46,540 bases of DNA, taken from IMG/VR virus record IMGVR_UViG_3300034683_000093, positions 1 to 46,540 of that record; one strand, given 5' to 3'. Source of the stretch: a virus (taxonomy: Duplodnaviria; Caudoviricetes). A program made the position numbers and the translations under genes. The first letter of the stretch is position 1; each line of letters starts with the position of its first letter. The notes beneath the pieces are model-generated. The model made no database searches. It worked only from the letters and a program-made list of their open reading frames with translations, and was not told where the DNA came from. Shown here piece after piece: positions 128 through 34,264 of the stretch.

Positions 128-1703
128 CCTAAATTCAGCAAGAAGTCTCCATCTTCTATAAGGTGGAGATGAATTGCTGACTAATATAATTGTTATTTCT
201 ACAAATTAGCTGCAATTCTTTCGGATTGATTTGTTTATATTTTTCTGATATTCGTAAATAATTACCTTCTATGTCCTGTACATATACCCATTTTCCTGTA
301 AAACCTGATATATAGCCTATTTTATCTATTGAAGGTATATATACTTTATCCCACAAACACCAGCAGTTATTATTAGTTATGATTTTCTTTATGTTCTTTT
401 CGTTTCTTTTAGCATCTCTATTAGGTTTACTTCTTCCTTTACGTGGAATTTCTTCATGTAAGCTGCGTTTCTTTTTACGAACTTGCTTGATATAATAACT
501 GACTGATACCTCCTGTCTTGGTTTTATCCCCACAATAGCAATAGCATCATTTATGTGTGATTTTTCTAAATTCCATTCTTTGCGTTTTCTGCGGGTATAT
601 AGTCCAAAAGTATATTCTGTTGGTGCTATTTCCTGTAATTTAGAAACAAGATAATCCCTTAAGACATTCATAAATGCAGTAGCCTTAAAATTCCTAATTG
701 CTGGCGGATTTTTGCCAGTAAATTCTTTGTACAATAGATTGTCTTTCTGTCTGTTGTGTTCTTCGCAGCAACATACAAGATTAGTTGGATTATCTGTTCC
801 GCCTTTACTTTTAGGTATTATATGATCTACTGTCATTTTGCCTGAACATGGTATATCAGGTCTTAATTTAGCATAATGACATTGATAATTGTCTCTTATT
901 TTTACGTATTCCTTAACAGTGTCAAAACCTTTCATATCTCCATTTTGATATTCTTTACCTTGTATATTTGGATTTATTAATGCCTGTGTATCAAATTGTC
1001 CTACTTCTACAATGATGTTTGTAATAGGTATAATTTTAGATAACTTTTTTATAATATTGTAATGTGCATCAATTCTTGCTGTTATGGATGGTGGAAGCCA
1101 ACCATTTTTCCTTTTGCGGTTAAGAAATCTTGGTTTTCTGTAACGTGTTTTTCTGTTTCTTCTGCTTCTTCTAAGTCTACGTTTTGTTTCAATATTTTCT
1201 TTGATGTCTTGTCTTAATATTACTTGTGCTTTATAAATTATTCTGCCATCATCTGTTGTTACTGCTATGCCTATGTTTTTACTGCCAGCGTCAATACCAG
1301 CAGTACAACATTGTTTATAACCACTACTGCCGTATAACAGTTGGATTGTGAATGGTTCATATTTGACTATCTTTGCTTTGCCTTGCTTAAGCAGTTTCCT
1401 TGCTTTTGAAGGTTTGCACGACATAAGAGGTCTGCCATGTTTGTTTACAACGAACACTAACATAAAGTGTTCCTCCTTTCAGAGTTATTTGCCCATCGCC
1501 AATGTTAGACAAGCTTACACGTACAAGCCACTGTTCCTACCCACAGAACTGTTTAGGTCATGTACGACAGAGCTTGAAACTTGAGCATCATTTCAAGGTG
1601 TCATAACCTGTCTAACGTAGCCCCGTCAGCATATTGCTGGTGGCTGAGGCTAGTCAACCAAGGCTTTTTCAAGCCTCCGCTTCTATAAGCGGGGGTAGTT
1701 GAC
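128..1703 (-). mobile_element. IS200/IS605-family IscB element (no tnpA)
   Basis: Subterminal hairpins at about 146-170 and 1674-1695, end motif GTAGTTGAC at 1695-1703, TTTAA flank at 123-127; removing 128-1703 restores the reading frame of the flanking gene. Confidence 0.88.
156..1463 (-). CDS. iscB: IscB RNA-guided endonuclease (RRXRR/PLMP, split RuvC, HNH)
   Basis: PLMS (PLMP-like) N-terminus, RuvC-I GIDAGSK, Arg-rich bridge helix RRLRRSRRNRK, RuvC-II IVEVG, HNH DHIIPKSKGGTDNPTNL, RuvC-III SHINDA; AAAGGAGG RBS. Confidence 0.96.
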   Translation of the reverse strand: MLVFVVNKHGRPLMSCKPSKARKLLKQGKAKIVKYEPFTIQLLYGSSGYKQCCTAGIDAGSKNIGIAVTTDDGRIIYKAQVILRQDIKENIETKRRLRRSRRNRKTRYRKPRFLNRKRKNGWLPPSITARIDAHYNIIKKLSKIIPITNIIVEVGQFDTQALINPNIQGKEYQNGDMKGFDTVKEYVKIRDNYQCHYAKLRPDIPCSGKMTVDHIIPKSKGGTDNPTNLVCCCEEHNRQKDNLLYKEFTGKNPPAIRNFKATAFMNVLRDYLVSKLQEIAPTEYTFGLYTRRKRKEWNLEKSHINDAIAIVGIKPRQEVSVSYYIKQVRKKKRSLHEEIPRKGRSKPNRDAKRNEKNIKKIITNNNCWCLWDKVYIPSIDKIGYISGFTGKWVYVQDIEGNYLRISEKYKQINPKELQLICRNNNYISQQFISTL

Positions 1704-3260: not shown

Positions 3261-5186
3261 TTACTTAATATAAAAATTAAGCAATATTTTCTCTACTGGC
3301 TCTATTGGGTCTAATTCTATATTGATATGGAATGTCTTTCTTTTCTTCTCGTATTCTGTGGCACCAACTTCTACATTGTAGTCATATAATCCTCTTCTAT
3401 TCTTAATATCTTCAAGGAATCTAATGACTTCACCTTTAACCTGAGTCCATGTAATTTCATCATTTTGTTCAAATATAAAATATTTAGAGAACTGTTTCAA
3501 TGCCCTATCAATATATAAAACCATCCTAACAACATTAAGTGATTGCATTTTAGATGGCTTTCTTTGAGATGTCAATTGTCCCCAAACAACATATCCAGCA
3601 TTAAACAATACAGTTGGGTTAATTTGATTGAGATACATTTGATCTCTATCACCCTGTAATGGATTATATTCTAACTCATCAATATCTTGGATGGCTGCTC
3701 TGTTAAAACCAGCAGGGGCAAACCATAATTCTCCTACTGTATCATTGTAAGGTATAATTTGTGCCATATGATAAACTGGTGAGACCCAAAGTTTCATACC
3801 ACTAAATGGATCAGTAACTTTTCTATATTGTGAATATATAGCACAATGATAAGTATTATAAGATTGTTCCATTCTTCTAGCTCTTAGTTCTTGTTCAAGA
3901 TTTCTATTCCTACCATTATCAAGAATAGCAACACAATCTTTTCTTAATGCATATGCTAATTGAACAATAGCATCTTTAACAGCTTTTGGATATCCACCAT
4001 CATATACTATTGAAAAATAAATATTCTCAACATCAATTACTTGTGAATCATAAATACCAGAATATGCCTTAATTAAACATTCATTAGCTACAGTTGGATT
4101 AATAGTGCCATCAGCATTAAACAATGAACCAGAAGAACCACCACCAAATTGTCTGAATGATGGATCATCATTTCCATCTACTGGAATTATAAAGAAAGTT
4201 GCATATGGATCAAAATTACCAACAAATCCAGCACCCATATGATAATACAATTTACCATCTTCTGTTTGTATTAAATCACCATAACCAACAGTAACAGATG
4301 TATCCTCTACAAAATCACCAGTAAGATCATCATATTTAATAACTTTACCTATAAAATCATAAAATTCACCAAGAGCACTCTCAGCAACAAAATACTTATC
4401 ACCAGTTGATGGATTTTCAATGATATCATCATCAAATATAACCCCTTTAACATCAACTATATTATAACCAGTATTATTGACTATGTCTTGTGTTAAAAGT
4501 CTATATACTTGATCAAATGTTAAATTAGGATTCACTTTACACTTAATGTAATCACAGTATTTATCCAATACATCTTCAATAAACATTGAATCACCAGAAT
4601 AATCTCTGATATCTTTTCTAAATGTTACATCAAATGAATCAGCTATATCATAATAACCATCAATATTCTTGGCATAAATATCCAATACATAAACATAATC
4701 AACATTGGCAGATTTAGTAAATTTAATTTTGAAATCATTATAATACTCACCTCTACCAGTAGCATAAAAGACAGCCAATGGAATACTGGAAGAGACATTG
4801 GTGTTATTCAAATAAATATCTGCATCATCAACATCATGCATAGTAATATTTTCAAATAATACTACATGATTTGTCACATCATACTTGACTGCAATATTTG
4901 CATAAGTTGCATCTGCTGGTAATGCTCTCATACAATATAATGCAGTAGAATTTTGGATAAACTTATCAGCAATCAATAAACCTTGACCATATGCTGTCGA
5001 ATATTTTTCAATATTTGGATATCCAAATTCATTCAATAAGTCTTTTCTAGATGACTTAAAAACTAATTGATTGTCCCTACCTTTGTCAGCAAAAAATGCC
5101 ACAAATGCTATTGTTGAAGGCACAGCCTCAACATAAGTACTTAAATCTGTTATCTTACTATAAACACCTGGAGAAATGGGTTCCAT
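3261..5186 (-). CDS. Contractile tail sheath protein
   Basis: N-terminal SPGVY, C-terminal WFAPAGFNRA, INP, LNVVRM, FEQND motifs of myovirus sheath proteins; AAGGAGG RBS. Confidence 0.95.
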   Translation of the reverse strand: MEPISPGVYSKITDLSTYVEAVPSTIAFVAFFADKGRDNQLVFKSSRKDLLNEFGYPNIEKYSTAYGQGLLIADKFIQNSTALYCMRALPADATYANIAVKYDVTNHVVLFENITMHDVDDADIYLNNTNVSSSIPLAVFYATGRGEYYNDFKIKFTKSANVDYVYVLDIYAKNIDGYYDIADSFDVTFRKDIRDYSGDSMFIEDVLDKYCDYIKCKVNPNLTFDQVYRLLTQDIVNNTGYNIVDVKGVIFDDDIIENPSTGDKYFVAESALGEFYDFIGKVIKYDDLTGDFVEDTSVTVGYGDLIQTEDGKLYYHMGAGFVGNFDPYATFFIIPVDGNDDPSFRQFGGGSSGSLFNADGTINPTVANECLIKAYSGIYDSQVIDVENIYFSIVYDGGYPKAVKDAIVQLAYALRKDCVAILDNGRNRNLEQELRARRMEQSYNTYHCAIYSQYRKVTDPFSGMKLWVSPVYHMAQIIPYNDTVGELWFAPAGFNRAAIQDIDELEYNPLQGDRDQMYLNQINPTVLFNAGYVVWGQLTSQRKPSKMQSLNVVRMVLYIDRALKQFSKYFIFEQNDEITWTQVKGEVIRFLEDIKNRRGLYDYNVEVGATEYEKKRKTFHINIELDPIEPVEKILLNFYIK

Positions 5187-5318: not shown

Positions 5319-5963
5319 TTAGAAAAATAAATACCAAATTAAAACAATTTCTCTGTTTTGATCTTTTCTTACTGTGGAAAATGTTACTCTTGAAAACAAT
5401 TTAAAAGTTGTTGCATTTGCAGCTAAATGACTATTTGACAACCATAATGCGGCTTCATTTAAATCATAAACATTTGCCTCATCTCTTAAAATTGTAGTTG
5501 TCAATTTTGCAATCAAATATCTGTTATCATTAGAATCATCCATTAGAATTTCAATAGAGTCAAAATTTTTCTTTCTACCACCATCTGCATAAGTTGTATT
5601 ATTTGGATCTATAACTATTTGACTACTTAATCCAGAATCATTTATGTTGGGAGCAATTGGGTTCAATGGGTCTGTTGTCAATGCTCCACCAGTACCAACA
5701 CTTAACCAAGATACATATAAATCTTTTTCATTAGACCCAGTTACCCTATCAAAATTCAATGCTCTTTGTAGAATTGTTTCTCTACCATCATATACAATTA
5801 AATTTTGTTTGTCTAACAATTTTCCAGTTTCTTTATCAACAATCTCTACAAAACCTTTAATAGAATTTCTGTTATTGATATTCTCTGGAAATTTGTTTCC
5901 AACTATACATTTGTCATCCTGAGTCTTGACTATATTATCCGAAAATATAATTTGATTCTTCAC
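5319..5963 (-). CDS. Tail-collar/baseplate fibre-attachment-like protein
   Basis: NLIVxxGR, SVGTGG, LNEAAL, LFSRVTF..K...IxW pattern typical of tail-collar proteins; start revised to GTG at 5963 behind GGAGG because the ORF-track extension lies in the mini-element. Confidence 0.72.
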   Translation of the reverse strand: MKNQIIFSDNIVKTQDDKCIVGNKFPENINNRNSIKGFVEIVDKETGKLLDKQNLIVYDGRETILQRALNFDRVTGSNEKDLYVSWLSVGTGGALTTDPLNPIAPNINDSGLSSQIVIDPNNTTYADGGRKKNFDSIEILMDDSNDNRYLIAKLTTTILRDEANVYDLNEAALWLSNSHLAANATTFKLFSRVTFSTVRKDQNREIVLIWYLFF

Positions 5964-5986
5964 TTTGCAATCCTCCAGATATTTAT

Positions 5987-6322
5987 TATAAAGTGCAAGA
6001 AGACACCCACCTCTATAGGTGGGGGATGAATTGCACCTATAGTACATATACCATTTAAACAACCTCCTTTAATAAAGGTAAGTCAGGCAAAAGCCTGTAA
6101 GTCCACTTCGCCAATGTTACAGTAGGTTTTTCAGTAACAGCACTTCTCCTACCCATCAGAGATGTTTAACCATTACCCACAGAGCTTGGAACTTGTGGAG
6201 CATCCCAAGGTGTCTATATATTCTACTGTAACGTAGCTAAAAAGTAATCCTTTTAGCTTAGGCTAATCAACCGAGCTTGTTTTTCTACAAGCCCCCACCT
6301 CTATAGGTGGTGGGTAGTTGAC
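5987..6322 (-). mobile_element. Non-autonomous IscB-derived miniature element (PATE/MITE-like), copy 1
   Basis: Same end hairpins as the iscB element; retains omegaRNA, AAAGGAGG RBS and MVYVL* (6054-6037) fused to the far end; ATAAA flank at 5982-5986. Confidence 0.88.
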
Positions 6323-6341
6323 ATTTTCTGTTCATATCTTT
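6070..6341 (-). ncRNA. Orphan omegaRNA, copy 1
   Basis: Homologous to the scaffold at 1478-1703 with compensatory stems; ends approximate. Confidence 0.8.
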
Positions 6342-6353
6342 TTATATTTGTTC
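6341..6353 (-). promoter_or_regulatory. Candidate phage promoter motif GAACAAATATAAA
   Basis: Intergenic copy of the recurrent motif, 18 nt upstream of the omegaRNA scaffold. Confidence 0.55.
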
Positions 6354-6361
6354 ATAATGCA

Positions 6362-9300
6362 CTAATAATCTTTGATCAAAACTGTAATACCATCATTTGT
6401 AGAAAATGTATTATTTGATAAATTAGAAACAGTATCATATCTAATGTAACCACCTCTTATCGAATCTATGTTATCATATTTTAATAAATCATCATGATAC
6501 TCAGATGGACCAATTGATCTAGTTGAAAATTTATCTTTAAAATCTAAATGGAAATCAGAATTTAATGTATCTTGTGTATTATTATAAGTATCAAAAAGTT
6601 CTTCTGATGATTTTATTCTACCAAATGTAACTCTTTCAGAAATAATCCATTTATCAAATGTAAAACCTTCATCATCTCTATCTAATACTGGTTTATCATT
6701 ATCATAAAAGTAATTAACATATGCTTTCTCATTAAAATATACCCTGGTTATATCTTGAAAACTTTGAGTAGGAACTATACGATTATCAAATAAGTCCTGC
6801 TTTATATTAAAAGTTAAATTATCTGATTTTTGAAATAGATCTTTTAATATCTGTCGAATTGTATAGTTAGTTATTTCTTTTATAATCAAATCATATCTTA
6901 CATTTCTCCATATATCTATATCATACATTCTATGCCACTCAGGTGTATATGGTATATCATTTATATCTAACCTTAATTGATTATAAAATATTTCACCTGA
7001 CATATCAAAATATTCACTATGATAATTTTTTATTTTATTCATCTCATATTCATTAATATATAATGTATTAAATGGATCTTTTATATTTAAAGCTAATGTT
7101 AAAACATCATTATATCGAGTATGTATTGGTTTATAAACATTTATAATTTTGGATATATTATCATCCATCTTTAAATAATATTGAGTAAAATATGCTTCTT
7201 CTTGTAAGAAAAATGTTACATAAACATCTAGTAATGAAACTATATTAAACAAACCAAAATTAAAATCTATTTCAAGAGGTTGTGCTAACAAATTATCTAA
7301 ATATTTCTTGAAATCTGGATTTATTTCTTCTAGAAATTGACCTATTTTCTCTGTCGAATCTATTTCTTTATTATCAACGCTTATATCAATATCTTCTAAA
7401 TTCTCTTCACCTAATGCATATGGGTCATCCATAAAATGATTTACATATTCTTCTGTTGATGCTGGTCTTGTAAAATATTTTATAAATTGTTTTCTTTTTT
7501 CTTCTAATATAGTTTTATTTGTTGGTTGGTAAATACTTTCATAATATGTTCCAAATAAAGCAAAATCATTATATGTAAATAAATTATTATCTAAATTCAT
7601 TGCCCAATTATTACTATGATTATCAGCAATCAATGTCTCTTCAAAATTGCAATTCAATACATATTTTGTTTGATTATTATCTACATCATAACAATCAATA
7701 CAAATAAACTGCATATCAATTATATCTAATTTAATACACTTATCAATCTTTGGAAATTCATTAGTTGTATTAATTTTGAAAGTTTCCCATACATTATTTC
7801 TATATCTAAATAAATTATACCCATTAACAAGAACTAGATCACCATTATTTAATAGTTTAATAAATACTTTATAATCATTATCAATGAGATCAATTATATT
7901 TTGTGGAATATCAATAGATACAATATTAGGATAATTATAATTACCTTTAAAATAGAATGGTAAATTTATACCATCTCGTAACCAACCATTAACATCATCA
8001 CTATTATCCAAGTTACTACTTACATATTCATTTAATTGTTCTAAATTAAACTTATATATTTTCTTTTCTTCATGTAGATAAATTACCACATCATTATGTT
8101 TATTATGACTAATATCAAAATTAGTAAAAGAAATATTTCTAAAATTTGTTAAATTTATACATGATGTATTATGATAATCTAACACATATAAATTTTTATC
8201 AAATTGATTATTAGAGTTATAACCAAATGCTAATACATTAAATCTATTATTAATACTAAATGTTTTAAAATTATAATATTTCCAATTAATATTATAATTA
8301 AACCATTTATGTCTTATTAAATCATATTTACATATGTTTGTATTAAGTTGATTGTTATTATCTTTCCCACCAATTAAATAAATGTAACCTTGTATATAAG
8401 AACATCCATGGTTATATAAATAATAAGGTATATCCCTCGAAATAACAGATGTTAGTGATTCTTTATCTATAAAGTATATCTTATTTAAAACGCTACCATC
8501 TCCACCTATTCCACCACTGACCACGATATTATTCCCATAAGTTGTGGCAGAATAATCTTTCTTTGAATTAATTAAAAAATAAAAATCATTTCTATTTTCA
8601 TATTCAGTATTTACTAATAATTTCTTTTTATATTTTCTATAATCAGATATATTCTCTTGATTATCTTCTTTAAAATAATTGTATGTAAATTTTTCTGAGG
8701 TTTTATCTACAGGCCGTTGATGCACATCTACCCAAATATCTTTCAATTTCTGATATTCATAAAATCTAGTTACATAATCATATATACTTGAATCTTCTGG
8801 ATATTCTGTAAGATCAAGATCAATATTGCTTAATAATATATTACCATTAGCCTCATTGTTTTCAAATTTACCATATCTTTTTGTCCAAATATATCCTAAA
8901 CCTAAAAATGTTTCTAAGAGTGATAAAAATTTACCAGATTGTTCATGATACAATAATCTATGTGGATCAAATGAAAAACTTGAATCATTTTTATTAGCTT
9001 GATAATAATTATATTCTTCATGAATTATTTTTGTTAGATGTGTTAATTGTCTATAAAAAGCATTTAAATCTGGTGCAGCAACTATTTTTAAATATGGTGT
9101 TAATGAAGGTAATTCTAATCCATCGTTCTTATCAGGATTTTTAATTATCTTTAATATATCATCTTTTTGATAATACCAATGTGGATCTTTTTTAGTATAA
9201 TATTCAAATTCATTTTTAAATTCTATATCAAAACTTGTTCTTCTTAGCTCATTTCTTCTAATTGGATATGACTTAAAAAATAAATCAGTATCATTTGGAT

Positions 9301-24012: not shown

Positions 24013-24846
24013 CTATTTTATTAACTCCTTTATAAAATCTTCAATAAAATCATCTTTTTCTAAATCTATAGAATCCAAATCATCTTTTAATCTTATATCT
24101 AAAGCTTTATCAAAATAATCAACCAGAGACATATCGACTTTTTTACCAAAATATTGACATTCTTTAATCAGTCTATTTGAACAATCAAATTTTCTCTTTA
24201 CAGGTGTATAGATATAAGTAGAGAACAAATCGAACATATTATCAACTGGTGGTTTTATTGCATTTGGTAAATAATCACTAATAATTAAAGCATTTTCTAT
24301 TTCATAATATCTATCATATTCTTTAGTATATTTAGTTAAATATAATAAATTATAATTCCAGTTCTTTTCTTTTTTATATTTAATTATATCAAAATAAATT
24401 TTCTTTACATAATCTATAGATTCAAAACCATCAATACCATTATCATATATTCTGTAATCATATAATAAATACTTTTGTTTAGACAAAATATGTTTTCTGA
24501 AATTTTCAGCTATATTACTGCATCTAAATCCTATAAAGATATCAGTAATAAATAAATTATTTCGATCAATCTTTCCATCTGTAGAAAGTATAATTGAATT
24601 ATAGAATTTATTTAACTTTTTAATTTTATAGAAATATGTATTGCTCATTACTATATCTAAAAGATCGTCATTGAAATTATATTTATAAGAAACAATTTTT
24701 CGAAAATTAGTATATGTATTATAGTCAAATAATAAAATCTTAGGTTTAAACTTTCTTAATTTGTACCACATATCTATAACTTCGTAAACATGACCATTAA
24801 CTATAGAATGATTGTCATTTGAATAAGTTATGAACAAGTCTTTCAT
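24013..24846 (-). CDS. Hypothetical protein, GT-B-like paralog family member 2
   Basis: NGHVYE, YVKKIYFDI, FDCSNRLIKEC; ATG at 24846 behind GGAGA. Confidence 0.6.
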   Translation of the reverse strand: MKDLFITYSNDNHSIVNGHVYEVIDMWYKLRKFKPKILLFDYNTYTNFRKIVSYKYNFNDDLLDIVMSNTYFYKIKKLNKFYNSIILSTDGKIDRNNLFITDIFIGFRCSNIAENFRKHILSKQKYLLYDYRIYDNGIDGFESIDYVKKIYFDIIKYKKEKNWNYNLLYLTKYTKEYDRYYEIENALIISDYLPNAIKPPVDNMFDLFSTYIYTPVKRKFDCSNRLIKECQYFGKKVDMSLVDYFDKALDIRLKDDLDSIDLEKDDFIEDFIKELIK

Positions 24847-24930
24847 TTTCAATTATCTCCTAAAATTTGTTTTACATTTTTTAAAGCTCTATCCTCTATA
24901 TTCATATTAATCTGTTTTTCTATTCCATCA
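24844..24930. repeat. 87-bp exact direct repeat, copy A
   Basis: Identical to 25864-25950 (cattttcaattatctcc...ctattccatca). Confidence 0.93.
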
Positions 24931-25043
24931 TTTAATATCATATGTATGTACAATTTACTTTTTGTTACATATGTATTAGAAAATACATATACTAAAGGTT
25001 TATTTTTAATAGATCTAAAAACTAGTAATGACCTTTTCTTCAT
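24849..25043 (-). pseudogene. Chimeric 64-aa remnant ending in a duplicated C-terminus
   Basis: Last 26 aa (DGIEKQINMNIEDRALKNVKQILGDN) identical to the end of 25869-26678. Confidence 0.55.
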
Positions 25044-25044
25044 A

Positions 25045-25866
25045 TTACCACTCTAAATTATACAAATAATAACATTCTTTACAATCTTCTAAATGTAGAC
25101 AAACATCATTATTTAGATACATATTTAATAACTCATATGAAAATTTATATCCTCTATTATTTAAAGATCTACAGCATGGAATAATTATATCTTTTTCTAG
25201 ATCTATTTTAATTTTGTTAATATTAATTTTACAACTAATTAGTAATCTATTATATTTTCTTCTATTTATTACAAAATTAAAATATCTGCTAAATGAAGAA
25301 AAATACTTTTCATCTATATTATACTTTCTAAATATTTTTATACATTGTATAATTTGATCTAAATCTAAATTCCAAGTTCTATCATTTATATCAGATATGA
25401 TATAATATATATCTAAATCTTTATATTTCTTAACAAACTCTTCTAAATATTCTAAATTATATCTATGAACAATTACTACTTTATTAACACATTTAAAACG
25501 TTGTTTAACCATATCCAATTTTTCTACATCTATACCTTTTGATATTTCTTCTGTTATATGATAAATGATAATATCAAATAAATCATTAGGAACTTTATTA
25601 AAATCTGTTCCATTAGTAAATAATTTAAATTTGCAACTATACTTTTTCTTTAGACTTAACAGATTATTGAAAAAATTTTGAGACAATAATGTTGGTTCTC
25701 CACCAGAAATCTCATATATGTGATTATTACCACAAAAGTTAATTATTTGATCAATTTTGTTTAAAATTATATTTTCATCTGGTAATTTATATTTCATACC
25801 AGTTAAATCTGTACAATACGGACAATCCCAATTACATCTCGATAAACATCTTAAACAAATATACAT
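25045..25866 (-). CDS. Radical SAM protein
   Basis: CNWDCPYC, SGGEPT, TNG, C-terminal C...PCC...CKEC; ATG at 25866. Confidence 0.92.
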   Translation of the reverse strand: MYICLRCLSRCNWDCPYCTDLTGMKYKLPDENIILNKIDQIINFCGNNHIYEISGGEPTLLSQNFFNNLLSLKKKYSCKFKLFTNGTDFNKVPNDLFDIIIYHITEEISKGIDVEKLDMVKQRFKCVNKVVIVHRYNLEYLEEFVKKYKDLDIYYIISDINDRTWNLDLDQIIQCIKIFRKYNIDEKYFSSFSRYFNFVINRRKYNRLLISCKININKIKIDLEKDIIIPCCRSLNNRGYKFSYELLNMYLNNDVCLHLEDCKECYYLYNLEW

Positions 25867-25950
25867 TTTCAATTATCTCCTAAAATTTGTTTTACATTTT
25901 TTAAAGCTCTATCCTCTATATTCATATTAATCTGTTTTTCTATTCCATCA
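25864..25950. repeat. 87-bp exact direct repeat, copy B
   Basis: Identical to 24844-24930, 1020 bp apart. Confidence 0.93.
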
Positions 25951-26678
25951 GTTATATCATATCTATTAATATAAATTATTTCTTTATTTAGATACTTACA
26001 TTCTAGAATTAATCTAGGTGAATAATCATAATGTTCTTTTGACTTATATATAAAATACTTTGAAAACTTATTGAAAAAAATTGGAAGATAGTTAAAAAAT
26101 AATTGGTAATTTTCTATATTTTTATATTTGTTCATAAATTTTCTAAATTGGTCTTTTCGAATTAGAATAACTTTTTTATTTTGATAACTATTTAAAATAT
26201 TAACTATATCTTTTATCTCATCATCATTGTATATATCTATATAAGAAATAAGATTAACAAAAATATTATCTTCACAGAAACTAGGTTCTTGAATACCATC
26301 AAACCAAATATACTTTCCAATTTCTTTACCTATATTAACATCATATTTAAAACTACTTGACGTATTAAACCATAATAATTTTTTAAAATTTAAATGTTTT
26401 GTTTTATCTTTAAGAATCATTTCTTTAGATGTTATTAATATATCTATTTCATTATTAAATGAATCTATTATTAAATCTTTGTAAAATACTTTATATCTAT
26501 ATTTTTGTATTTCATATAGATAGTTTTTGTAATTATTGACTAAAAAATATGATTGATAACCATTAAATCTTAAAAACATAGAATAATCTAATAAATCCAA
26601 TATGGTTCCATTTAAGTTAAAGATATCATTAAAACTATAAAAACAAATTATATTGGGTTGTTTAAGAATTCTTTCCAT
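25869..26678 (-). CDS. Hypothetical protein, GT-B-like paralog family member 3
   Basis: NGTILDLLDY and YDYSPRLILEC align with NGHVYE and FDCSNRLIKEC of the paralogs. Confidence 0.55.
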   Translation of the reverse strand: MERILKQPNIICFYSFNDIFNLNGTILDLLDYSMFLRFNGYQSYFLVNNYKNYLYEIQKYRYKVFYKDLIIDSFNNEIDILITSKEMILKDKTKHLNFKKLLWFNTSSSFKYDVNIGKEIGKYIWFDGIQEPSFCEDNIFVNLISYIDIYNDDEIKDIVNILNSYQNKKVILIRKDQFRKFMNKYKNIENYQLFFNYLPIFFNKFSKYFIYKSKEHYDYSPRLILECKYLNKEIIYINRYDITDGIEKQINMNIEDRALKNVKQILGDN

Positions 26679-29326: not shown

Positions 29327-29353
29327 AATCAGTACCTCCTAAATTATATTTAT

Positions 29354-29686
29354 CATAAAGTGCAAGAAGACACTCACCTCTATAGGTGGGTGTTGAATTG
29401 CACCTATAGTACATATACCATTTAAACAACCTCCTTGAAAGGTAAGTCAGGCTAAAGCCTGTAGGTCCACATCGACAATGTTATGCAGGGTTTTTTGGTA
29501 GTAGCACTTCTCCTACCCCTCAGAGATGTTTAACCACTACCCGCAGAGCATGGAACTTGTGGAGTATCCCATGGTGCCTATATATTCCTGCATAACGTAG
29601 CTAAAGAGTAATCCTTTTAGCTTAGGCTAATCAACTATGGCTTGTTCTTCACAAGCCCCCGCCTCTATAGGCGGTGGGTAGTTGAC
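29354..29686 (-). mobile_element. Non-autonomous IscB-derived miniature element, copy 2
   Basis: Colinear and highly similar to 5987-6322; MVYVL* at 29421-29404; ATAAA flank at 29349-29353. Confidence 0.88.
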
Positions 29687-29705
29687 AAATATTCTTATAC
29701 ACTAA
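29436..29705 (-). ncRNA. Orphan omegaRNA, copy 2
   Basis: Scaffold with compensatory changes relative to copy 1; ends approximate. Confidence 0.8.
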
Positions 29706-30549
29706 CATCATAATTACAGTTACATGTACAATAGTTGCAGTCACATGTACATGCATAATTGCAGTTACAAGTACAATAGTTGCAATCACAAGTACAATAA
29801 TTACAGTTACATGTACAATAGTTGCAATTACATGTACAGTAATTACAGTTACAGACACAATTATTACAATCACATGCACAGTAATCACATTGACAAGTAC
29901 AATAGTTGCATTGGCAATTACAAGATGTATAGTTACAATCACAAGTACAAACGTTGCAATTACATGGGCACGCATCTACATTACAAGTACAATAGTTGCA
30001 ATTACATGTACAATAATTACAGTTACATGTACAATAGTTGCAATTACATGTACAGTAATTACAGTTACATGTACATGAATAGTTACAGTTACATGTACAT
30101 GAATAGTTACAAAAACAGAAACATTCATTTACATCTTCAATTAAATCTTTTATTAGACTAAAATGTGCTTCATTTGTAATAGGTTCATTTGGAGCAATTA
30201 TTGTATCAGTAGCATAAGAAGGTATTTGATGTGTATCTCTATAAGGTCTAATTACTTCAACAAATTTATTTCTTATGTTTCTCCAAACATCTGCTCTGAT
30301 AATTCCACTCAAATTTATATTTAATGGACTATTACCTCTTCTTAATGCTTCTAGGTTTAATTGATCTACAAAATTTGTAAGTTCGCTCAATCTATCAATA
30401 GGATTCTCATCATCCTCTACTAGATTTATAGTAGGAAAAATACTCCTAATATTTCTAGCTGCAACTTGACCAGAATATGCATCACATCTATTAACATGTG
30501 ATGTACAAAATGTTGGTGTGCTATCACTTGAATGAGCATTACATGCCAC
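29695..30549 (-). CDS. Cys-rich repeat protein, candidate radical SAM modification target
   Basis: About 140-aa N-terminal domain plus 138-aa tail of about 19 CxCxCxY units; GTG start at 30549 behind GAGG overlaps the stop of the upstream radical SAM gene. Confidence 0.85.
   Translation of the reverse strand: MACNAHSSDSTPTFCTSHVNRCDAYSGQVAARNIRSIFPTINLVEDDENPIDRLSELTNFVDQLNLEALRRGNSPLNINLSGIIRADVWRNIRNKFVEVIRPYRDTHQIPSYATDTIIAPNEPITNEAHFSLIKDLIEDVNECFCFCNYSCTCNCNYSCTCNCNYCTCNCNYCTCNCNYCTCNCNYCTCNVDACPCNCNVCTCDCNYTSCNCQCNYCTCQCDYCACDCNNCVCNCNYCTCNCNYCTCNCNYCTCDCNYCTCNCNYACTCDCNYCTCNCNYDVSV
29710..30123 (-). repeat. Coding tandem repeat, 21-bp unit (CTCNCNY)
   Basis: Units such as TGTACATGTAACTGTAATTAC/TGTACTTGTAATTGCAACTAT with variation mainly at synonymous positions. 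Confidence 0.93.
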
Positions 30550-31636
30550 GATTAACCTCGTCCATTGCAAATTTTATTTTAGTTAATAAATAAAAGTATT
30601 CACATAAATACTCTTGTACATCAAAATCATTCCATCTTTCAAAATAGTTTTCTTTTTTACTATATTTGTATTTCTTTGCATTACATCTTAAACAAAACAT
30701 ACTTGAACAACTCACACATTTACCAGTTTGTTTTCCAAAATATTCTTTAAATTGCTTTGATCTATTAATTACATCCTCAACAACTGTATCTTTAGCTATA
30801 TTTGTATAAACATGTTCTTCATAATATGAATCTCTATATAAAGCACCATGACATGGAACTATATTTCCATTAGTGTCTATTGATAACATATCCAATCCAG
30901 CTGAACATAATGCTTTATTGGGTCTAAACCATGTAAATTTTTGTTGCCCTGTTTTCATTTCATACTTTGCTATATTAATCAAGCTTTCTTTTAAATCATT
31001 ATAATATTTATTTATTTGTTCTTTTGTAAAATCTAAATCTAAATCTATACTTGGAAAATAATTATTATGTATTGTAATGACATCCAAATATGCCTCATAC
31101 ATATATTTAAAGTCTTCTGGTGCAATAGTACTTTTAATTGTCATAGGTATGTTATTTCTTCTCAATTTCATAATATTTTCTTTAACTAATTTTGCCGAAC
31201 CCTTACCTCTTATATTAACTCTATACTTATCATGAATTGGTTGACCATCATAAGAAACTTGAATAACCATTTTAGGATTACCATTTAATGTTCTTTGTAT
31301 GTTAACATTTTTTAAAAAGCTAATAAATTCATCATCAATAAAATAACCATTAGAGTATATAAAAAATGAAACTCGTTGATCATTCAAATAATATTCTGTT
31401 ATTTTTTGAACTCTTTCTTTTTCTAATAAAGGTTCTCCTCCCCAAAAATTAATAGATAATGTTCCATAATTTTGTTTAAAATATTGAGAGTCCATAAATT
31501 TATCTATAAACTTAAATAAATTATCAAAATCTTCAAATTTCTCATTTCTCATCTTATCGTTTTTAACTTCAAAACAATATAAACATCTTAAATTACAATT
31601 TCTAGTAATATTTATATCCATATGGAAGTTTTTCAT
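30539..31636 (-). CDS. Radical SAM/SPASM-domain protein (peptide-maturase-like)
   Basis: CNLRCLYC, FWGGEP, SYDG, CSAG...G.IVPCH, CxxC-x4-CxxC...C; ATG at 31636 behind AGGAG. Confidence 0.92.
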   Translation of the reverse strand: MKNFHMDINITRNCNLRCLYCFEVKNDKMRNEKFEDFDNLFKFIDKFMDSQYFKQNYGTLSINFWGGEPLLEKERVQKITEYYLNDQRVSFFIYSNGYFIDDEFISFLKNVNIQRTLNGNPKMVIQVSYDGQPIHDKYRVNIRGKGSAKLVKENIMKLRRNNIPMTIKSTIAPEDFKYMYEAYLDVITIHNNYFPSIDLDLDFTKEQINKYYNDLKESLINIAKYEMKTGQQKFTWFRPNKALCSAGLDMLSIDTNGNIVPCHGALYRDSYYEEHVYTNIAKDTVVEDVINRSKQFKEYFGKQTGKCVSCSSMFCLRCNAKKYKYSKKENYFERWNDFDVQEYLCEYFYLLTKIKFAMDEVNRGM

Positions 31637-34019: not shown

Positions 34020-34170
34020 GAATTAATTATTATTTTTTTTGAACTTCTCCCACTTATAGAAGTGGGAGATTCTCGCTTCATCGGCCTCGTAACCTACTAC
34101 CTCCACGAGCCTCACTTTCGGACGGTTCCCGCCCTAGTGTATTTTTATATAGCTTAATCTTAGTTCTTTT
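34020..34170 (-). ncRNA. Putative TnpB reRNA/omegaRNA with 3' flank-derived guide
   Basis: GC-rich structured segment (GGGCGGGAACCGTCCG, CTCGTGG...TTACGAG stems) between the tnpB tail and the right end; ends approximate. Confidence 0.65.
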
Positions 34171-34264
34171 AATCCTTGTTTAAGTATATTGTTTGCAGCA
34201 TTAATATCTCTATGAGCAATTCATCTCCCACCTAAAGAGGTGGGAGTCTTCTTGCTTATTTACG
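34039..34264 (-). mobile_element. Non-autonomous tnpB-derived miniature IS200/IS605 element
   Basis: TTTAT flank, left hairpin CTCCCACCTC-TTTA-GGTGGGAG related to the IscB element ends, right hairpin TCTCCCACTT-CTAT-AAGTGGGAGA ending GTTCAA. Confidence 0.85.
34134..34214 (-). pseudogene. tnpB: TnpB C-terminal fragment
   Basis: Manual translation HRDINAANNILKQGLKELRLSYIKIH* matches the TnpB RuvC-III RDxNAAxNI motif. Confidence 0.85.

Follow-up and report, generated by a model that had tools for sequence, protein, structure and literature searches.

We propose that two short elements of a large phage genome, hereafter copies 1 and 2, are very probably gene-less derivatives of an IscB transposon family, which kept the transposon ends and the omegaRNA scaffold, lost iscB through a deletion between two copies of the repeat TGTACTAT, and receive their transposase from elsewhere. 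They are omegaRNA-bearing non-autonomous IS200/IS605 elements (PATEs). To judge from the alleles of coding relatives, the matched base changes that distinguish their scaffolds were probably inherited from these relatives, and not selected after the loss of the gene.

The DNA analysed (the window) is an entire virus record of 46,540 bases, with an estimated completeness of 18% and a GC content of 24.5%. Its minus strand carries almost every long open reading frame (ORF), a tail-sheath gene occurs at 3261-5186, and the three HEARO RNAs detected are all on the minus strand (Table 1).

Table 1. Position and nature of the IscB- and TnpB-related features of the window
Feature	Position	Strand	Description
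Full IscB element of another family	128..1703	-	ORF 156-1463; HEARO 1484-1703; flank TTAAA; NF040563, 353 bits; not the parent of the minis
Transposon-adjacent motif TTTAT (RNA strand: ATAAA)	5982..5986	+	adjoins mini-element 1; seen in the X6 contig and in family flanks
Mini-element 1 (copy 1)	5987..6322	-	336 nt; protein-less IscB/IS200-IS605 derivative; exact 336-nt skip in the run X6 contig; repeats D2/D5
Left end of mini-element 1	5987..6036	-	hairpin 6006-6023; L005 and the G001 element have the same end (53/53 nt)
RBS AAGGAGG and fused remnant MVYVL* of mini-element 1	6037..6069	-	deletion junction within the 8-nt repeat TGTACTAT at 6039-6046
omegaRNA (HEARO) scaffold of mini-element 1	6097..6322	-	RF02033, 158.1 bits; 5' part of the scaffold is the transposon right end
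Predicted guide of mini-element 1	6323..6338	-	flank 5' of the scaffold by the IscB rule; abuts ATAAA in the empty allele
Mini-element 2 (copy 2)	29354..29686	-	333 nt; mosaic scaffold 29461-29686; MVYVL* 29404-29421; motif TTTAT 29349-29353; RF02033, 159.1 bits
Third protein-less element, TnpB type	34039..34264	-	left end resembles that of the minis; last 26 tnpB codons (HRDINAANNILK...); right-end RNA region; motif TTTAT

Anatomy and surroundings of the mini-elements

Both mini-elements match the Rfam model RF02033 (HEARO) over model positions 1-211, with scores far above the gathering score of 83, and their scaffolds fold with z-scores of -5.8 and -5.7. These matches bear out the initial annotation, which described the two as IscB mini-elements that lack the protein but keep an omegaRNA. 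Their protein-coding content is limited to MVYVL*. Copy 1 is identical to the nuclease-coding element L005 at its right end (67/67 nt) as well as at its left end, and subterminal hairpins occur at both ends. Both copies are intergenic, lie just ahead of the next ribosome-binding motif and are oriented with the operon. The two ends, the scaffold, the ribosome-binding site, MVYVL* and the stem pairs reported earlier are all present, and the coordinates given for the elements are exact. The scaffold of copy 1 retains all 48 core pairs, but one pseudoknot pair of copy 2 is a C.T mismatch, so that its scaffold is incompletely intact.

Several features were noticed elsewhere in the phage. A further HEARO element, cut by the end of its record, lies on the minus strand about 6.3 kb to the left of the window start (L083 1-127, record G005). 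A 21-nt tandem repeat (29709-30117) occurs directly upstream of copy 2, within a minus-strand ORF (29695-30570) without Pfam match. The region 9930-33972 holds a long series of short metabolic-looking genes; among those scanned, two match Radical_SAM, one matches a DXD glycosyltransferase family, and several others have CxxxCxxC-like starts. A 91-nt repeat (24844-24934 and 25864-25954, 99% identical) spans the starts of two adjacent genes. Comparison with cultured phages returned five weak records, none of which covers 80%. The sole match in a search of GTDB genomes was a Fervidobacterium MAG, in the order of which 2 of 58 genomes match at E<=1e-10; it is not evidence on the host of the phage.

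Parent family and deletion junction

Using pattern and protein searches, we collected 48 family elements with a visible right end, which correspond to 36 distinct scaffolds (elements whose right end is not visible were excluded from this set). Eighteen of these scaffolds are coding (16 with an ORF of at least 400 aa and two cut by the end of the record), and 18 are protein-less or truncated. The coding members specify a 435-aa IscB (NF040563, 373 bits).

In L005, iscB starts with GTGGTATATGTACTATCT and ends with TTTTGTGTACTATAG, which is followed by the left end. The 8-nt TGTACTAT occurs in codons 3-5 of some parent iscB genes and again right before the stop codon, and collapsing both copies yields exactly MVYVL*. 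A perfect repeat is found in 3 of the 20 full elements in which both ends can be seen, as well as in the G001 element. At 6039 and 6046, loose contig ends (runs X5 and X6) continue into parent iscB sequence.

The initial annotation gave MVYVL* as what remains of iscB. The gene in question is not the iscB of the window, which starts with MLVFVV: MVYVL* fuses the opening and closing codons of an iscB that belongs to another family. We also rejected the window element as a parent on other grounds, namely 40.5% identity over 343 aa between its IscB and that of the parent family, a scaffold about 70% identical to those of the minis, and a flank of TTAAA (in all 8 loci whose flank can be seen, out of 9 examined from a set of 13, at 7 distinct sites) instead of ATAAA. 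One member of the window IscB family, L192, has an internal deletion and a complete-looking scaffold.

The deletion junction is indeed common to both copies. Since the 8-nt repeat sits at the start and stop of iscB in the parent, this microhomology may explain it, and a shared junction need not mean common descent, of which it is weak evidence. In a third mini with the same junction (L002/L003), the left end and the start codon both differ, and at least six other deletion junctions occur across the family. One deletion followed by scaffold exchange is also possible, because only 3 of the 20 full elements have the perfect repeat and L009, the main donor type of copy 2, is devoid of it. It is worth noting that the iscB of L004/G001, the closest parent of copy 1, is split between the ends of its record, where 133 codons of the N-terminal part and 76 of the C-terminal part are visible (L094 is also cut); this parent is thus only putatively full-length, which counts against our explanation.

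Compensatory changes between the scaffolds

Copies 1 and 2 differ in 38 of 239 scaffold columns. As regards the earlier statement that these differences fall in paired positions, there is no enrichment as such, 25 of them being in paired columns versus about 21 expected (133/239 columns are paired), but eight are two-sided changes that keep the pair. In 200,000 random placements such changes averaged 0.74 and never exceeded 6, with helices taken from the Rfam alignment and copy 1, a choice that favours structure. The compensatory base changes are therefore real.

The initial annotation attributed these changes to selection on RNA structure after iscB was lost, and likened the minis to a dispersed array of guides, each directing an IscB against the empty allele in the genomes of competitors. 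We find this proposal improbable, even though the scaffolds are complete and folded, from the following lines of evidence on when the changes arose. First, both alleles of all 38 differing columns are found among the 18 distinct coding scaffolds, and neither copy has a private pair type, i.e., one unseen in coding elements. Second, copy 1 differs in only two of the 239 columns from the coding element L004 (the G001 element), as compared to 38 from copy 2, and the left end of L004 is identical to that of copy 1. Third, copy 2 differs from L009 in 18 columns overall, but can be divided into five segments, of which three show zero differences from L009 and the other two zero differences from L005. 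This mosaic joins the 5' pseudoknot strand of one type with the 3' strand of the other, giving C.T where L009 has A-T and L005 has C-G. Fourth, in a tree of the 36 scaffolds, the bootstrap of which has not settled and the model of which is violated by recombination, both copies have an end branch of 0 and their grouping as one clade is rejected (p-AU 3e-8).

Because all alleles and pair types occur in coding scaffolds, the covariation is not shown to post-date the loss of iscB, and selection on the RNA structure after that loss finds no support in the 38 columns, the pair types or the tree. The stems quoted in the initial annotation likely reflect inherited variation in a recombining family. 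The lack of private changes in the pairs of either mini speaks against a guide array, as do the broken pseudoknot pair of copy 2, the three broken long-stem pairs of the third same-junction mini L002, and the microhomology at the junction.

The broken pairs of the protein-less scaffolds are not taken as proof of their decay. At least two broken pairs occur in 8/18 protein-less versus 5/18 coding scaffolds, a difference that is not significant (p 0.49) and in this respect speaks against our explanation, and 45 of the 66 broken cells of the protein-less scaffolds (66/864, versus 10/864 for coding ones) come from four scaffolds with one common deletion. The apparent breaks of the small P1b helix, which stem from an artefact of register, do not enter this count. 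On the basis of its pairs, the protein-less L100 is the strongest candidate left for covariation that post-dates gene loss, and it counts against our explanation: it has four private intact pair types, its nearest coding relative is at least 43 columns off, and it has no sampled parent.

An empty allele of copy 1

In one of four runs, the DNA run X6, a contig aligns with window positions 5686-5986 and resumes at 6323, with a clean skip of 336 nt and no shared letters. The boundaries of copy 1 are fixed by this contig, because it joins 5986 to 6323. It reveals that a close relative of the phage, which differs on one side at 29 of 1,178 nt, naturally carries the empty allele of this copy. The empty site may be ancestral rather than an excision product.

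On the RNA strand, the empty site reads as the guide followed by ATAAA (TTTAT on the other strand), a motif found in 28 of 30 distinct family flanks, the two of the window included. Copy 1, the only copy for which an empty site was obtained, is thus inserted alongside a fixed motif, without target duplication. IscB guides are taken to be 16 nt long, which sets the length of the guide predicted for this copy. The earlier assertion that the guide is directed against the empty allele holds for copy 1, the guide of which flanks ATAAA in an allele present in nature.

That a close relative carries this allele is in line with a guide array aimed at competing phages. The guides match only their own sites, however: the 1.04 Mb of loci searched contain no other motif-adjacent match with up to two mismatches. 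One match of the copy 1 guide with three mismatches, in AT-rich DNA of these loci, is regarded as chance. A selected array of dispersed guides is not supported. Empty alleles were also sought via the downstream gene in viral contigs, which gave one locus only, from the same phage and with the element present.

At window position 6022, loose contig ends (runs X5, X6 and X11) show the left-end hairpin running directly into right-end sequence; single-hairpin elements of about 45 nt without scaffold are a possible source of these contigs.

Other protein-less elements

The third protein-less element of the window is of the TnpB type and is closely related to the TnpB-coding element L156 (parent type), with 97% identity over 178 nt and 100% over 56 nt. 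Minis carrying a 23-nt scaffold deletion occur at several sites (L093, L107/L120 and L193). Because scaffold-damaged minis are found at several sites and a TnpB-type mini occurs in the window, we suggest that the transposon ends alone are enough for spread.

Many deletions of the family end just 3' of the scaffold, as a selected guide array would predict; the search that found them was anchored on the scaffold. A search anchored on the left end found only two IscB-type minis, both complete. Three further elements (L099, L116 and L124) have one insertion site and junction in common, with scaffolds up to 27 columns apart; L099 and L124, with different scaffolds at the same site, suggest an in-place scaffold exchange or an assembly chimera.

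Possible partners in trans and transcription

The window IscB is a doubtful partner for the mini RNAs, because its flank motif differs and single changes in the TAM abolished cleavage by GstIscB (Meers et al., bioRxiv 10.1101/2023.03.14.532601). This also disfavours a guide array served by the window nuclease. An intact IscB of the cognate family (86% to L005, flank ATAAA) is encoded by record G004, possibly a further part of the same sort of phage, and could provide such an array with its nuclease. G002, G004 and the window have no overlap, no common orthologs except IscB and a similar GC content, and each has homologs in G003. A cognate partner in trans is plausible because of the G004 IscB and of the further HEARO element to the left of the window. 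Stand-alone omegaRNAs of Ktedonobacter racemifer reportedly reprogrammed IscB in trans. As for the transposase, no TnpA match was found in the window record, which counts against our explanation, and one was found in G001.

Contigs of RNA run X11, which give no strand, start or level, map to the sheath gene and to the scaffold. The scaffold contig (6108-6265) is equally identical to a coding relative, hence no transcript can be assigned to the mini. A promoter scan of 5900-6500 was uninformative (5 sites versus 2.5 +/- 1.4 in shuffled sequences).

These observations bear on the possibility that the minis are inert relics, the RNA of which is neither made nor loaded and which look intact because the deletions are recent. 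We give this reading somewhat less than an even chance. Besides the RNA contig, the near-zero divergence of the minis from coding relatives fits a recent origin, and scaffold-damaged minis occur at several sites. Conversely, copy 1 keeps all its core pairs, a co-orientation with the operon like that of functional IscB elements, and the motif. Furthermore, inert relics are compatible with the deletion, inheritance and TnpA steps of the mechanism that we propose, and differ from it only in the use of the guide.

Proposed mechanism

We propose that a deletion between the 8-nt repeats at the start and stop of iscB likely produced the minis, leaving MVYVL*. This would have occurred through separate deletions, or through a single deletion after which the mini recombined with full-length elements; in both cases, the matched changes would have been made in coding elements. 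By analogy with IS200/IS605 biology, a Y1 TnpA acting in trans would insert the minis beside TTTAT without duplication. Operon read-through would then yield a transcript comprising guide and scaffold, as suggested by the intergenic, operon-oriented position of the minis. A cognate-family IscB, if present, would cut the empty site, thereby favouring copying of the mini or homing, a step for which we see an evenly balanced case. In the same way, the mini RNA may equally well be used or not used in trans by a cognate IscB, when judged by analogy. Such trans cutting would be a by-product that serves each element selfishly, rather than a guide array of the phage.

More tentatively, and with a probability that we regard as rather low, the repeat may be a deletion hotspot that sheds guide-only elements, which would rely on a cognate IscB encoded elsewhere in the genome, by a co-infecting phage or by the host and, through cutting of the empty alleles of sibling phages, home into these, their scaffolds being refreshed by recombination.

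With the parent, the target motif, the repeat behind the deletion and a natural empty allele to hand, the minis offer a clean worked example of a known element, in which trans homing of a guide-only element between phages is directly testable. They also call for caution, in that covariation of orphan RNAs and a shared junction are uninformative on selection after gene loss until coding relatives are sampled.

Comparison with known systems

The minis are no different in kind from ISC transposons with their PATEs and from HEARO RNA (Rfam RF02033). IscB and TnpB elements share hairpin ends, produce no target duplication and are mobilised in trans by Y1 TnpA (Kapitonov et al., PMC4810608), and more than 16% of HEARO-encoding fragments are viral (PMC9755519). 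Stand-alone omegaRNAs without adjacent iscB have been proposed to act with OMEGA nucleases encoded elsewhere (Altae-Tran et al. 2021, as summarised in PMC11610941). The minis resemble them in having an omegaRNA without adjacent iscB, and additionally keep both transposon ends and the start-stop fusion of iscB, a comparison drawn from that summary. In a literature search covering mostly titles and the beginnings of abstracts, we found no paper on guide-only IscB elements homing between phages.

The closest precedent is that of the PATEs related to ISGst1 and ISGst5 from Geobacillus stearothermophilus. PATEs related to the IscB element ISGst5 have been described, PATEs often encode omegaRNAs that would need a nuclease in trans, and IscB elements are biased towards co-orientation with the upstream gene, the guide being transcribed from outside (Meers et al., bioRxiv 10.1101/2023.03.14.532601). 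Thus, according to the same source, omegaRNA-bearing PATEs and the idea of their action in trans were already known. Like these PATEs, the minis have IS200/IS605 ends without a protein gene, a TTTAT-type motif and co-orientation. Unlike them, the minis reside in a large phage, with the parent, the 8-nt deletion repeat and the empty allele identified, and are known from their sequence alone.
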